This document shows, piece after piece, positions 3,001 through 21,000 of a stretch of 64,000 nt of DNA. The stretch's first letter is position 1. Every line of letters begins with the position of its first letter. Position numbers: made by a program. Source of the DNA: Styela clava (lineage: Eukaryota); assembly GCF_964204865.1 (NCBI RefSeq), contig NC_135262.1, positions 6,572,001-6,636,000 on the forward strand. The letters run 5' to 3'.

Positions 3001-6000
3001 AGTGCGGGTTGCCAATGTTTTACGAACTGGAAATAAAAGAGATGTTTACAAAAATAGCCTGTCAAGACAGACCATAACTCGTCGTGTTGAAGAGCCTGGG
3101 AACTCTTTTGCGGAAACTTTAATTGCAAAAGCGGAAAAATTTCCATCGTATTCTTTGGCGCCTGACGAAAGCACTGACATCAAGTTTACTGCTCAGTCGG
3201 CGACTTGGCGATCTTCTTGCGGGGAGTTAATGATGATATGAAATTACCGTGGAGCTCGCAGCCAGTGTCCCTGCTAAGGGTACGACTAGTGGCATTGGTT
3301 TGTTAAGAGCTGTGATAAAAGTGATCAAGCGTCTTGGCTTGTCTTTGGCGAAACTTTCGGGAATAACCACTGATGGCGCCCCATCAATGGTTGTAAAACA
3401 ACAGTTTCATTGTTCTAATAATTGTGAAAGTTTGATGTGCGGGTACTGTTTGTTTACTCATTAACCTGTAGTCAGTGTAGCAAAACTAGAACATAACTAC
3501 CATGTTAAGTGGTCATTGTAGCAAAACTAGAACAACTACCATGTTAGGTGGCCCGCGTAATTATTAGTGAACCACATGTGTCCCTTCGGCCAAAAAGGTT
3601 GGCCGACCCTGACTTAAACTGTAGGAAGCTAGCATGTATCGGAGAGAGACATCCAATTCCAGTCGTAATAGACAACCAAAGTTATTCTTTCTAAATCAAG
3701 TGCCTAGTTTGGTTTAAACGCTTGGGCCATTGCGTCTTCACTCGGTGATTTCTTACTAAAAATTTGGTAATATATTGTTAGATGGAAGTTGTCTACGTCT
3801 ACGACATAGCGTGCCAGTCTTGGCATATGGTTAGCAAGACAGTACGCTTTCTTTACATGCATTATCTTGATATTGACGCCATCGACACCGTTATGACGAC
3901 AAACAAATAAAAATTACGTTCTGTTAACATAATGATGGGCCTAATATTACAATCAGACCGTTTGAAACATTGCCTCTACCTTATACAGTTTCGATCTTTC
4001 TGATGGTTGATAATAACGCCAGCTTATAAGGAATGATAACACGACATTTGTACGAATCTGGCTGAAGTAAAACACCGTCAATCCAGCATGTCTCACGTAA
4101 CTGCCGCCCCAATTGCCAGATTTGGCTCTCAAATTAACATAAAACGAAACTGATAGGTTTGTTTTGTGGACACGTATAGTTCTGAATTTAAATATTCAAG
4201 TTTAGAAAACCTTATATATATATGTCTTGTTGTTTCATGTCATTGGTCACTATGTTCATCTATCTGCTCGTCACGCTGACAAGAATTATTTGAAATCGGC
4301 GACTTTGAGATGTAATGTGTAGATTATGGAGTTATGCTTCTTAAAGGTCCATGGCAACCATGGTACATGTCTAATGCGCACTTAGTATTAGTATTTAATT
4401 TATATAAATTCATTTACTACTGAGTTATTACATTTGTTCGATTAGTACCGTCAGGTTTGTCCGTGGGAATGGGATTCCCACTGGAAACGTCCCATGGCAC
4501 GGGATGGATGGGACAGCACACATTTGTATTTCACGTGGGACTCCAAAATTTTTGAGACACTCATTTTTATATAAGGTTATGTTTTGTGCGTTAAACAAAA
4601 TTATCACTATGTCTTTACCGGCGCGGTTTTAACACGATGGTGAGGTAACGCGGTATCCCCTTAAAGTTAACAAAGTCAATAAATTTTGTCGTTTTTGCAT
4701 GTTTCTTTGTGCACGTAGTCCTGTTTAGTAGACGCTAAACCTGAATTTAGCAATTCTTATCGAATTGTATTTCAATGGGATGGGATGGGACAGAAAAAAA
4801 TGTCCCATGAACAAGCATGAGTACCGTAGTAAACAAGTATTTTCTGTGTTGAGTATCGTTAATTACATAATAGATAATATATGAACGTAATGGTTTATCA
4901 CGAAAAGACAAAAATTTTTTAGTGTCATTTCAGTGTAAAATTCACTTGTGCTTCTATCGGGGCTCATGCCAACAGTCGCATCAGCCGAAACGCACGCAAC
5001 GCATATTGAAATGCCATTCCACAGATTTTCGTCAACTTCAGAATCGATTGACCGAACCTGAATGCATTGTTTGAATATTTTTGCCCATTGTTGGTATTAA
5101 TACCTTTCATAGTTTACAATTGTGTGACTAACTTCACGATCTGTAAGTCGCTGTTGAGGTCCACGATATTTATGGACACGGCATGAGAAAAATAGCAATT
5201 AGAATAAGAACATGTCCGTGTTCCTAATACCGAAACTATGAGACGTACACTGTTGCATGGTGACGTCACGATACCGATGATGTCACGAGGGTAATGTAAT
5301 TTTTGAATTTTGAATAACTGGGAATGTGTGATGAGAAGAAACCTGTGTTTGGTTAAACCTCATTATTTCATCCATACCTGATATCTTTGTATAGTTACAA
5401 TAATTGCAGTTGCATTGCATATTAATCCAAGCAACCATATTGCTAAGATATCCAGTTTTTTGGAAGCTTTATTTGGATAAAATATCGTACACAAATTTAT
5501 CATTAATCACAGCCATTTTGTTCTCTACTGTGGCAGGGCCAAAAGCCGTGTATTGACGTAATTTGTTCGCTTTGATGAGCTTGCGATTGTTCGCGGAAAA
5601 CATGCAATCACTAACGTGACTCACCATTCTATTTTCAGCGAGGCAACTCGTCGTTTGGCAGCGTACATGTTGCACGCTCGGATAAAATGATGAAATAATT
5701 TAGAGAAACGTGAAAATACAAAAGAAAAAAGACTTATTTGACGTAAATACCAGTTCCAGAATGAGATATAACCAGTATGATCGAGAATATTCGTGTGGGA
5801 CCGATTGTTATTATTTAGTAGACCGATAGCAACAGGTATCAGCACCCATTAACCAAGAGAAGCGATTGGGACCGTAATTACTACTTAAATTGCATGATAA
5901 CTAAACTTGTTGCTTTTGTCTCTTATAGAAAAATACTATAAAGCATATACATTACTAGAGTATTAACTTGACGAAGATGTCAGTACATTACCGTCTCAAC

Positions 6001-18000: not shown

Positions 18001-21000
18001 AACACACTATGGATGTGATACCGTACAAAACTCTTGTTCGTTCAAATGCGATCAAAACAATGAGATCATTACTCAGAGAAGTTGAAATGAGTGGATTTGT
18101 ATATGCTTGCGAAAACCGAATCTTAGAAGAAATCAAATCCTATACCCCAGACTTATGGGAATCCGATATACCTAATACTATATGGGCCGGATATAAAATA
18201 GTTTGGAACGAACCTGGCTTTGTATATTGTGCCAAACAAATAGATAACATGGACCTTTTCGAAAACGCGGAGTATTACTTTAACAATATCGACCGTTTGC
18301 GCGCCAATACATATATTCCGTCACCATATGACGTCATACTTTGCAGAAAACAATTAAATAGTATTTTAGAAACACCACTGCGAAAGAACCTCTGGCTTCT
18401 AGAGGTCGCTCCTATAGATAAAAAGAGCAACGTAAAAAGGATACTCCAGTTTTTCGAAAGAGATTGTGTGCTGATATTTTGTGTTGATGTATCAACATAT
18501 GACACATTTAAAGAAGATCGAAAGACAAACCGCCTTTTAAGCACCTTTGAACAATTCAAATGGATTGCAAATCATGAATTTACTAAGGGATTAACAATAA
18601 TGGTTTTATTCACTAAAAAAGAAACGTTCGAGCGTAAATTACTCGATAAAAACCTAAACATATGCTTTAATGATTACAATGGGCAAAATGATTTTCAAAG
18701 CGCGTCTGAATTTGTGGCTAAAAAATTTGAAACGGTGTTACAAAAAAATCACTGTTTTTATTCTTCTTTTGTATCGTGTGATGGATCTAATCTTGCAAAA
18801 GATATGAAGAGAGTGAAAGTAGCGCTTCATACGTGCTTCGTACAATTACATATATCTCAGATGCGTCTTTGATACGAAATTTAACCTCATTGACAAATTT
18901 GATTACATTACTGTATTTTTAACTTTTTTATGCCTTTTTGTATTGCTTGTTCGAAGTGCTTTTCAATCTTGGACCCACTGCTCAGAGTTTAGATCAGTTA
19001 CAGTAAATAGCCCAATCGCAATTTATATGACATCAATAAGGCCACATACTATGTTTGTAATGAAGCATGTACTTGCTTTAATAGTTTGGAAATTAGTCAA
19101 TGAATGTTAACAATATAATAATATGCTGCCAAATGTAGATCGCAGCCATCATCCGTTTTGAATTATTTCCGTGTTTCAGGTGTTTATAATTAAATTTGGA
19201 GCCTTCACGTAATAACTAGAGTTAAGAACTACTTTTTCGACACTTTCAATGCTCGGGTGTTGATGTTATCTATTGTAGAACATTTCCAACACTAATTTTG
19301 ATTAAGAACTATTCACTACTACTCCTTCATATTTAATCGTAAAAACAAATTTTGACGCAAAAAACAGAGCTAAGAGTCACCAAATCAACAACCAAAATAT
19401 CGTTTCGATAAAATAAATAAATTAGGAAGATATAATGTACTTTTTGAATAGTTAGAACCATCTGTTATGCTTGCTTAGGTTCTAACTATTTACTGGTGCA
19501 CCCGTGAAAATATAACAAGGGTTGCTTTTATCACATGAAAATATATGTTGCTTATAATTTACCAAATTTTTTGAAAAACTTGAGTATATATGAAAGTTCA
19601 TCTCAAACGACTTATGTTGCATATGGTATAATTTTTTTAATTAGAACTATAATGATTGTAATTACTGAAAAATTGAAATGCCCTAGCTGGAGGGTAAATC
19701 GCGCTTGATAAGGAGATGCTTAGACCATTGAGATGAAAATAAACAAAATTTAGCATAATAGATAAAATTGTAAGGTTATGAGTATGACGATTGAATAGCG
19801 TTGCAGTTAGCAAGCCAAAACCACGAAAGCAAGCCATGTCGTCAGCAAAATTTTGTACTTTTTCTTGACCCACGAGCGACACCTCGAAGGTAAAACTACA
19901 CAATATTTAAATAGTAATTTACTACTTCATTTTATTACGTGATGAGGAAAGTTCAGAACGATGTTTTATGTCGATATATACACCCTAAACCACGACATAT
20001 TGTTCGGTTACATTTCAGGTGAATCATACGAGAAATAGTTAGATTGGTTAATTTTTTATAGAATCGGAGTCGAAATTTCAAAGTACTTTGAGTCTGAATT
20101 TCAGATTTTTAATGAAGATAATCAAAATGTTCTACATTAACTTGAAAAAGATACAATTTGACTGAGCTTTCCTTAATATTGAGAAGAGCTTGCATATGCC
20201 AACGTTTTTATCCTAAAGATTTAATTTTTCGAGTGTTGGGGCCCGGAGTCAAGATAGATTTTTTTAATCCGGACTGGGGAATCAGAGTCGATTGTAAATT
20301 TTACCCAACAGAACTTTTCAACGCCTGGATAGAAAAGTACAGTACACGATACGGAAATCGAGGAAAGCTGCCAAAACGTTGAATGAGCTTTTCACATACG
20401 ACATGAAAGTATTAAATGGCCAATCTCACCTTGTGTCAGAGAATATTAGTGAGAAAACAGTTAACCAGCGAATGCACAAATTGTAATTGTTACATGACCA
20501 TCGACTAAGTGCTGATTGGCCATTCTTGGAGAAAAAACAAAGTCGAGGTAACAAAAGCGAGGTGTATATGTATAAACGCAGTTGGAAATATCAACCCTCC
20601 CGTACATAATTTTTCCTGGAAAAAAGCATTTATACAGGTGCGCCAGTCACCGAGATACACCTGGCTCTGGCGTTTTGTCCGTAGTTTAGTTCATAAATCA
20701 ATCTCGTTTATTTAAAAGTGATTCAGTCAATCAATAGTCATTTATTCATGATTGAGTGCTCGTACCTTTTTTTCCATATTAGTGGCAGCGGTGTTCGGAG
20801 TCCGAGAAAGTTCGATCCACCCTCCAATCATTAAAAAACGTTTTCAAGTTCCTAAGTTCTGGAATGTGGATAATAAAAATGACCCTGCACCGACTTCCCT
20901 GTTTACGTCCGTAATATTGACTAATCTGCAAGTTGTCACTGGTTGTGTAACAATTGGATTTTTAGCAGCCGCTCAGTCACCTTTTTTACTCGAACAGACT

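Follow-up and report, generated by a model that had tools for sequence, protein, structure and literature searches.

Among the nucleotide-dependent switches of animal signalling, the G-alpha subunits are the textbook example, and their G boxes count as some of the best-conserved motifs there are. In the small-GTPase world there are also pseudoGTPases, in which degenerate G motifs sit in a retained fold and which are presumed to act by binding and not by switching. According to passages of Lokits et al. (2018, PMC5896119), the gene preGNAI has eight coding exons, intronless preGNAI re-insertions are found in Urochordata, and Botryllus schlosseri, which belongs to the same order as Styela, has a distinct set of its own. 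Passages of PMC12176390 group four divergent Ciona genes with the Gi/o family, three of them having Gi-like C-termini, and report three Gi genes expressed in Ciona papillae; in passages of Prasobh and Manoj (2009, PMC2752167) one 'Unclassified' Ciona homolog keeps all critical conserved motifs. For the plant protein XLG2, passages of bioRxiv 10.1101/795088 describe GTPgammaS binding that is 100-1000 times weaker and partners that are bound independently of nucleotide. Here we analyse two intronless G-alpha genes, copy 1 and copy 2, in a stretch of 64,000 nucleotides from the tunicate Styela clava (assembly GCF_964204865.1, contig NC_135262.1, positions 6,572,001 to 6,636,000), hereafter the window, whose first letter is position 1. 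The boxes G1 to G5 of both proteins have been rewritten, and they probably represent a family of pseudo-GTPase G-alpha proteins maintained by selection. The initial annotation of the window had cautioned that divergent invertebrate G-alphas are known, and aptly so; the intronless Gi genes of tunicates and the divergent Ciona G-alphas are in print, as the passages cited above attest.

Results

Open reading frames (ORFs) were called with the standard code, ATG starts and a minimum length of 100 amino acids (aa) on the + strand of the examined region. Three were found, 5977-7050, 13979-15439 (486 aa) and 17814-18872, the first and last being copy 1 and copy 2 (Table 1). The coordinates, the lengths of 357 and 352 aa and the intact, intronless character that had been claimed for the two copies were all reproduced. 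Each ATG is preceded by an in-frame stop, at a distance of 6 codons in copy 1 and 3 in copy 2, so the ORFs are complete and not pieces of longer exons. Both copies scored far above the cut-off of the Pfam G-alpha family PF00503 (176.2 bits for copy 1 and 168.3 for copy 2; cut-off 48.8), matching positions 17-303 and 14-329, respectively, of a profile of length 333, and the HMMER check proposed for the claim that the G-alpha scaffold is kept therefore came out in its favour. In each copy one unbroken ORF covers the whole domain, in place of the eight coding exons of preGNAI. The copies are identical to each other at 160 of 349 aligned residues (46%, E 2e-105), and copy 2 is 99.4% identical to a database protein of Styela clava (P0003, 'G(t) subunit alpha-3-like', 352 aa). 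The two residues of 352 that differ between them, at positions 5 and 125, fit allelic variation between individuals or assemblies. The window is free of N, has a G+C content of about 29-39% and contains just seven stop-free frames of at least 150 codons; since long frames are this few and both ORFs carry homologous G-alpha domains, a chance origin of the two is excluded. A tblastn search of the window with four G-alpha proteins detected no further G-alpha copy beyond these ORFs, and hence neither an array nor relics.

A first homolog search yielded six proteins at E<=0.001 among 2107 candidates: copy 1 itself, P0002, P0003 and three distant canonical proteins. P0002 is a Styela clava protein of 353 aa named 'G(o) subunit alpha-like' (47% identity); because the window does not encode it, it is a third S. 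clava paralog located elsewhere. We then searched all 1,835,955,588 protein representatives by HMMER with a profile of the three paralogs and obtained 5332 hits at E<=1e-3, 2301 at E<=1e-10 and 41 at E<=1e-30. Set apart from the rest by score were P0002 (658 bits), P0003 (655), P0007 (325) and P0008 (261). The next match, P0009, is a canonical Go-like protein at 177 bits, and no canonical protein exceeded that score. The corresponding boxes read GAINSGKAE, CRKKLNS, DLGTI and FTYSE in P0007 and GEAESGTDG, CQKVLNG, EMAPL and FTNRE in P0008. Eleven other sequences fetched beside these two had canonical or near-canonical boxes, with single box changes in P0011 (G3), P0018 (G1) and P0019 (G1). A profile of the five sequences, run against a 5.8-billion protein set, gave no additional clade member among 4502 candidates. 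The clade is thus narrowly distributed across the protein representatives searched and most likely is a small, intronless one, with three members in Styela clava and two from other sources. We also noted that P0009 (463 aa) carries its C-terminal third, from the alpha3 region through the G5 box, twice in tandem, and looks like a gene model joining alternative exons; alternative exons 7 and 8 of GNAO are mentioned in a passage of Lokits et al. (2018, PMC5896119).

The G boxes were examined in phmmer alignments to solved Go and gustducin chains and in a MAFFT alignment with 121 other G-alpha representatives, namely those of 300-420 aa among 154 other proteins. Canonical forms were read from P0010, a Gi1-like representative whose residues 1-348 align to Gi1 1-346, so that Gi1 numbering is P0010 numbering minus 2. 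The G1 sequence GAGESGKST of P0010 is replaced by GAPGSGTKE in copy 1 and GEAGSGKTE in copy 2; RTRVKTTGI of switch I/G2 by LCRMKLNSI and LCRKQLNSI; DVGGQ of G3 by EVGPI and EVAPI, after which switch II is longer by two inserted residues; and LNKKD of G4 by FTKTE and FTKKE. At G5 neither copy has a recognisable counterpart of TCAT, and neither has the conserved G1-G5 motifs of G-alpha as a set. The alignment tools reproduced all of the substitutions in G1-G5 listed by the initial annotation and refined one point: the Walker A consensus GxxxxGKT is still formally present in copy 2.

The Walker A Lys and Ser, the switch I Thr (an Mg ligand), the switch II Gly (the gamma-phosphate sensor) and the catalytic Gln and Arg have established roles. 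Those of Arg178 and Gln204 are set out in a passage of the XLG paper (bioRxiv 10.1101/795088). We scored 11 key positions: Lys and Ser/Thr of G1, Arg and Thr of G2, Asp, Gly and Gln of G3, Asn, Lys and Asp of G4, and Ala of G5. Copy 1 retained 2 of the 11, copy 2 retained 4, P0002 one, P0007 four and P0008 none. Among the 121 other representatives, 78 retained all 11 and 19 retained 10 without gaps, and six gap-free rows retained 6 or fewer. Within the clade the Walker A Lys was lost in three of the five members (copy 1, P0002 and P0008) and the Mg-binding Ser/Thr in four; the switch I Thr was Leu in all five; the Asp of G3 was Glu in four; the gamma-phosphate-sensing Gly was Pro or Thr in all five; and the catalytic Gln was lost in every member, to Ile or Leu.

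The termini have changed as well. No clade member has Gly2 or a Cys at residues 2-8, although 79 of the 114 other representatives that start with Met begin MG; the claim that both copies lack Gly2 and an N-terminal Cys for lipidation was confirmed, their earliest Cys being not before residue 99. Gi-type C-terminal tails have a characteristic motif, which the tails of copy 1 and copy 2 (...KEMKLI and ...SQMRL) do not show. According to a passage of PMC12176390, the third residue from the C-terminus, a glycine, is important.

We compared these losses with the conservation of the family as a whole. Nine degenerate or fragmentary rows (P0036, P0143, P0085, P0147, P0043, P0054, P0027, P0105 and P0074) were dropped from the 121, leaving 112 canonical representatives in which 64 columns are conserved at >=80%. 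The clade retains 14 of these columns in all five members and 22 in at least four. The 14 lie mostly outside the G boxes, three being in the P-loop (P0010 Gly42, Ser46 and Gly47) and others including Trp133, Pro171, Asp175, Glu188, Phe289, Tyr292, Gly294 and Phe309. Another 21 columns are changed in all five members, mostly in or beside G1 to G5 and switch II, and at 11 of these at least four members have the same new residue (for example Thr to Leu, Gly to Pro, Gln to Ile, Asn to Thr, Asp to Glu and Leu to Phe). Constraint on the fold and on a new surface, but not on the nucleotide chemistry, would produce such a pattern. The best-conserved clade-specific stretch runs from switch I via beta3 into switch II and reads LC[RQ]xxLN[SG][IV]xET.[ML]R and then LL[ED]; the switch II of the clade is two residues longer and starts with Pro in four of the five members.

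Over 352 aligned codons copy 1 and copy 2 were identical at 0.60, 0.67 and 0.38 of the first, second and third codon positions. Nei-Gojobori counting gave a proportion of nonsynonymous differences (pN) of 0.363, corresponding to a distance (dN) of 0.496, and a proportion of synonymous differences (pS) of 0.779, which is saturated and past the Jukes-Cantor limit. When copy 1 was mutated at random with the base composition of the window (2000 runs per level), 51 of 2000 copies stayed open after 5% change, none of 2000 after 10% change, and none of 2000 at half or at the full observed divergence. Both reading frames have been under long-term purifying selection, and neither copy has the stops, frameshifts or neutral evolution of a processed pseudogene. 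The initial view that the copies are under selection and not in decay is upheld by the codon-position identities with pN below pS, by the absence of open simulated copies at 10% change and by the three further members with the same derived residues.

A maximum likelihood tree of 55 rows and 359 columns (LG+C20, quick search) placed the five members in one clade with a support of 100 in the Shimodaira-Hasegawa-like approximate likelihood ratio test and a stem of 1.33+1.03 changes per column. Within it copy 1 joined P0002 (support 80), and P0008 then joined this pair (support 95). The 150 representatives drawn on for a class-resolved tree are mostly non-animal. Class labels taken from C-terminal tail motifs were tried and dropped, 10 of 126 representatives having received a label. 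The canonical row nearest by tree path was P0010, itself Gi1-like at 495 bits. The best sequence matches in the PDB were Go (119.8 bits) and gustducin (117.9 bits), and the 60 best PDB rows listed for each copy were all Go, Gt, Gi or Gz chains or chimeras of them. In phmmer comparisons all five members scored higher with Gi, Go and Gt anchors (55-137 bits) than with a G12-tail protein and Schistosoma Gs (37-70 bits); among these anchors, the closest similarity was that to the Gi/o class. Identity to canonical representatives was about 18-26%.

The structure of copy 1 was predicted with AlphaFold2 from an alignment of 87 rows, and canonical P0010 was modelled on the same 87 rows as a control. 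The copy 1 model had a mean predicted local distance difference test score (pLDDT) of 85.9 and a predicted template modelling score (pTM) of 0.76, with values below 50 at residues 1-24 and 56-65 only; it has helices at 71-166 between beta1 and beta2, that is, a Ras-like domain with an inserted helical domain. The structure prediction called for by the initial annotation thus modelled a G-alpha fold with confidence. In a Foldseek search against the PDB the model gave 921 matches at E<=0.001, and every match listed was a G-alpha chain, the top ones being Gi3, Gi1, Gt, Go and Gq/11 (E 8.8e-20 and weaker, about 328 columns). The template modelling scores (TMt) were 0.48-0.57 and the root-mean-square deviation (rmsd) 7-13 A, and the highest value was obtained with a model of apo Gi derived from nuclear magnetic resonance and small-angle X-ray scattering (5js7). 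In contrast, the control (pLDDT 92.7, pTM 0.88) matched closed nucleotide-bound Gi1 with a TMt of 0.96-0.97 and an rmsd of 1.4 A. These values suggest that both domains of copy 1 are well modelled and are not in the closed, nucleotide-clamping arrangement. In the model a single unbroken helix runs through linker 2 and switch I at aa 175-186 (6499-6534), a stretch drawn as coil in the control; at the N-terminus a short, low-confidence helix (16-22) is predicted, against a confident helix at 9-33 in the control.

The sequences flanking the two copies have some features of their own. Trans-splicing occurs in ascidians, and AG sites upstream of both copies are possible acceptors for it or for an intron in the 5' untranslated region. 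Upstream of copy 1 (about 5908-5976) there is a pyrimidine-rich tract, whose closing AG is about 48 b before the ATG, and then a TATAAAG-like string; upstream of copy 2 (17700-17813) an AG lies 9 b before the ATG and, farther up, there is a short run of direct 'acttaactagat'-like repeats. AATAAA occurs 103 b past the stop of copy 1 and ATTAAA 317 b past that of copy 2. The ORF between the copies looks like an intronless FBXW7-like paralog, FBXW7 being its best named PDB relative (331 bits); its stop-free frame is open from 13652, and the 109 codons upstream gave no Pfam match. Among the remaining frames of Table 1, those with SPRY and Sulfotransfer_4 domains are probably exons or further single-exon genes.

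Table 1. Features of the window, with positions counted from its first letter
Feature	Position	Strand	Basis or remark
Copy 1, intronless complete ORF, 357 aa, degenerate G boxes	5977..7050	+	ORF call, PF00503, AlphaFold2, Foldseek
Copy 1 G1/P-loop, aa 36-44, GAPGSGTKE	6082..6108	+	Walker A Lys to Thr, Mg-binding Ser to Lys
Copy 1 switch I/G2, aa 180-188, LCRMKLNSI	6514..6540	+	Arg retained; Thr-Thr-Gly to Leu-Asn-Ser
Copy 1 G3/switch II, aa 201-214, EVGPIYNKSNIKRV	6577..6618	+	Asp to Glu, Gly to Pro, catalytic Gln to Ile, two-residue insertion, Trp to Val
Copy 1 G4, aa 270-274, FTKTE instead of LNKKD	6784..6798	+	alignment
Copy 1 region aligned to G5 (TCAT), no recognisable motif	6943..6963	+	alignment
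F-box-like (aa 101-145) and WD40 propeller ORF, 486 aa, between the copies	13979-15439	+	Pfam, PDB match
Copy 2, intronless complete ORF, 352 aa	17814..18872	+	ORF call, PF00503, homolog search
Copy 2 G1/P-loop, aa 35-43, GEAGSGKTE	17916..17942	+	Walker A GKT formally intact; next Thr to Glu
Copy 2 switch I/G2, aa 176-184, LCRKQLNSI	18339..18365	+	alignment
Copy 2 G3/switch II, aa 197-210, EVAPIDKKSNVKRI	18402..18443	+	alignment
Copy 2 G4, aa 266-270, FTKKE	18609..18623	+	alignment
Copy 2 region aligned to G5, without TCAT	18768..18788	+	alignment
SPRY domain, 45.5 bits	27482-28096	+	stop-free frame, Pfam
Sulfotransfer_4 domain, 168.7 bits	29897-30673	+	stop-free frame, Pfam
Stop-free frame, 318 codons, no Pfam match at E<=0.001	51345-52301	+	
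Stop-free frame, 255 codons, no Pfam match at E<=0.001	56455-57222	+	

Discussion

On the strength of the sequences we consider it probable that copy 1 and copy 2 belong to a functional, selectively maintained, lineage-restricted, Gi-derived and retrogene-like family of pseudo-GTPase G-alpha proteins. The clade most likely descends from a Gi/o-class gene that would have been retrocopied and then duplicated, an origin that is the most economical because of the Gi/o similarity, the proximity of P0010 and the intronless preGNAI copies of Urochordata. We propose that the two-domain G-alpha fold was retained and that the site of the N-terminal lipid anchor, the tail for Gi-type receptor coupling and most of the residues for Mg-GTP binding, gamma-phosphate sensing and hydrolysis were lost. 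The product would be a nucleotide-independent, non-switching protein of the G-alpha fold that binds its partner or partners via a fixed, rewritten surface; we take the stretch from switch I via beta3 into switch II to be this working surface. Such a mode of working is the most likely because many of the replacements (Thr to Leu, Gly-Gln to Pro-Ile, NKxD to TxxE) are conserved in the clade. As judged from residues and model, the GTPase fold is present and catalytic and nucleotide-binding residues are lost, as is expected of a pseudoGTPase. With the Walker A Lys missing, copy 1, P0002 and P0008 have no plausible phosphate grip; because all five members have lost the Thr that ligates Mg, the Gly that senses the gamma-phosphate and the catalytic Gln, GTP-dependent movement of switch II and hydrolysis are very unlikely in any of them; and, without a lipid anchor and with tails unlike those of Gi, the proteins are unlikely to couple to receptors at the membrane. 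We infer from these changes a loss of GTP binding and hydrolysis and a role as scaffold or decoy. Gi/o proteins become insensitive to RGS proteins when the Gly at the last position of switch I is changed to Ser, the residue that three of the five clade members have there.

Several points weigh against this reading. The tree shows the clade and not where it joins the G-alpha classes, and it carries a warning of a long-branch join for P0039; the classes covered by anchors were Gi, Go and Gt, with a single G12-tail protein and two Gs proteins of Schistosoma, and of the phylogeny proposed initially it is the single clade that was obtained. The proposed dN/dS comparison held in part: pN is clearly below pS, and because pS is saturated omega has no point value. 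A very recent loss of constraint is still allowed by the ORFs alone, because of the simulated copies that stayed open at 5% change. S. clava is the sole named species known to carry the family, and the short contigs of P0007 (one, of 1242 b) and P0008 (two, the longest 1419 b) are no more than compatible with transcripts. As to the model, the control shares 66% of its residues with solved Gi1, a structure that the prediction may reproduce from training, and the displaced helical domain suggested for copy 1 is read from TM and rmsd. Finally, some pocket residues are kept. The Walker A GxxxxGKT of copy 2 is formally intact and P0007 retains the Walker A Lys; the switch I Arg is retained in four of the five members; and the G4 Lys is retained in copies 1 and 2 and the G4 Asp replaced by the similar Glu in all five. 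Because of these residues, residual or altered nucleotide binding is possible, above all in copy 2.

The kept residues lend themselves to an explanation that we regard as unlikely, namely that the proteins are nucleotide-bound G-alphas, non-hydrolysing or of altered specificity (for GTP, or for ATP or XTP via the TKxE box), that are permanently 'on' or loaded, especially copy 2 and P0007. Such a pocket would also fit the P-loop, in which the first and last glycines and the intervening Ser are invariant across the five clade members. The G1 and G5 boxes, however, vary among the paralogs, which argues against a common new ligand and for a pocket under no common constraint. A loaded protein would, in addition, have to hold its nucleotide despite the loss of the Walker A Lys in three members and of the Mg-binding Ser/Thr in four, the Leu for the switch I Thr, the Glu for the G3 Asp, the Pro or Thr for the sensing Gly and the unrecognisable G5, and the AlphaFold2 model of copy 1 does not appear to be in the closed, clamping arrangement.

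About equally improbable, in our estimate, is a specific form of the pseudo-GTPase reading, in which the proteins are decoys that bind G-beta-gamma in the manner of plant XLG2 (or bind RGS, GoLoco or receptor partners) independently of nucleotide and so damp canonical signalling. Passages of bioRxiv 10.1101/795088 show how this could work, XLG2 binding G-beta-gamma with GPA1-like affinity despite a GTPgammaS affinity 100-1000 times lower. Four switch II contacts with G-beta, Lys209, Trp211, Ile212 and Phe215, are named in a passage of PMC2752167. In the clade the Lys and the Phe are each retained in four of five members and the Ile is Leu in four; the Trp, however, is Val or Ile in all five, and the contacts are set in a switch II with a Pro and a two-residue insertion. 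Nor would the N-terminus favour recruitment of this kind: the N-terminal helix, which in canonical G-alphas runs along G-beta, is predicted to be short, in a segment where pLDDT falls below 50, in contrast to the confident helix of the control, and the protein lacks a lipid anchor by which it could reach the membrane.

That the copies encode ordinary, fast-evolving Gi-like switches, receptor-coupled and GTP-cycling like the 'divergent' Ciona G-alphas, is very improbable. Their similarity is indeed highest to Gi/o, and according to passages of PMC12176390 tunicates evolve fast and several divergent Gi-like genes are expressed. The three divergent Ciona proteins described there have Gi-like C-termini, however, in contrast to the ...KEMKLI and ...SQMRL tails, and the 'Unclassified' Ciona homolog retains all critical conserved motifs (PMC2752167, in the passage concerned), whereas the clade members have replaced between 7 and 11 of the 11 key residues, the catalytic Gln in every case. 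It is scarcely credible that they are decaying processed pseudogenes still open by luck, as intronless copies of a normally multi-exon gene (the eight coding exons of preGNAI in passages of PMC5896119) with degenerate active sites might suggest, since two ORFs only 46% identical are both open when no neutral copy was open at 10% change, third codon positions are far more diverged with pN below pS, three more intact relatives share the derived residues and the AlphaFold2 model is confident.

Returning to a selectively maintained pseudo-GTPase family, we offer a further proposal tentatively and with less confidence than the family itself: that this may be the first animal family of true pseudo-G-alpha proteins, stolidobranch Gi-derived retrogenes whose nucleotide-free fold would be permanently 'open' and, with lipid anchor and receptor tail given up as well, would bind a new partner or, constitutively, G-beta-gamma by way of a rewritten, conserved face made of switch I and switch II. 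A clade maintained in this way would show that the G-alpha fold has uses without nucleotide, would supply a natural apo-like G-alpha for structural work and would extend the pseudoenzyme concept to animal heterotrimeric G proteins. The automatic names 'G(o) subunit alpha-like' and 'G(t) subunit alpha-3-like' imply a function that is very probably absent.

Elsewhere in the alignment, and outside the window, P0036, P0043, P0054, P0085, P0143 and P0147 retained 3-6 of the 11 key residues. These degenerate G-alphas look like independent degenerations because they are scattered in the tree, away from the Styela clade. The turning of G-alphas into proteins that do not switch may be a recurrent, general and overlooked theme.

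Compared with the Gi/o class (Gi1-3, Go, Gt, gustducin and Gz), the copies are alike in Pfam family, two-domain fold, length of about 350 aa and top similarity among the classes compared, and unlike in their rewritten G1-G5, the lack of Gly2 or Cys and of a Gi tail, the longer switch II, the intronless structure and an identity as low as that given above. Unlike the pseudoGTPases of the small-GTPase world, which are Ras-superfamily domains, the clade members are heterotrimeric G-alphas with a helical domain. An early-2000s report is said to have described novel G-alpha cDNAs from Halocynthia roretzi embryos. The intronless or 'divergent' Gi-like G-alphas of tunicates share with the clade the subphylum, the presumed parent class and an intronless structure or lineage-specific duplication, in so far as passages of PMC5896119, PMC2752167 and PMC12176390 describe them; the main-text passages of these three papers contain no mention of G-box loss in tunicate G-alphas. 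In the literature searched, mostly open-access main texts, we found no account of animal G-alphas, whether from Styela or from any other source, that form a clade with rewritten G boxes, and no application of the term 'pseudoGTPase' to an animal G-alpha, the plant XLG case alone being described.

The plant XLG proteins are the nearest functional precedent. XLG1-3, compared here through published descriptions, are G-alpha homologs without nucleotide-binding and hydrolysis residues, as we propose for the clade, and they are functional. They differ in that the catalytic Arg and Gln are both lost (to Glu, and to Arg or Lys, respectively), whereas four of the five clade members keep the Arg and the Gln is Ile or Leu, and in that their G-alpha homology is the C-terminal half of a larger protein, whereas in the copies of 352 and 357 aa the domain is nearly full length (bioRxiv 10.1101/795088, in the passages on these proteins). 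What was known before is thus the intronless or divergent Gi copies of tunicates, the pseudo-GTPase concept and the plant XLGs, and within the literature searched an animal clade with rewritten G boxes appears to be new. If our reading is true, plants and tunicates have arrived separately at such proteins, and the Styela clade would be a chordate parallel, of independent origin, to the plant XLG decoys.

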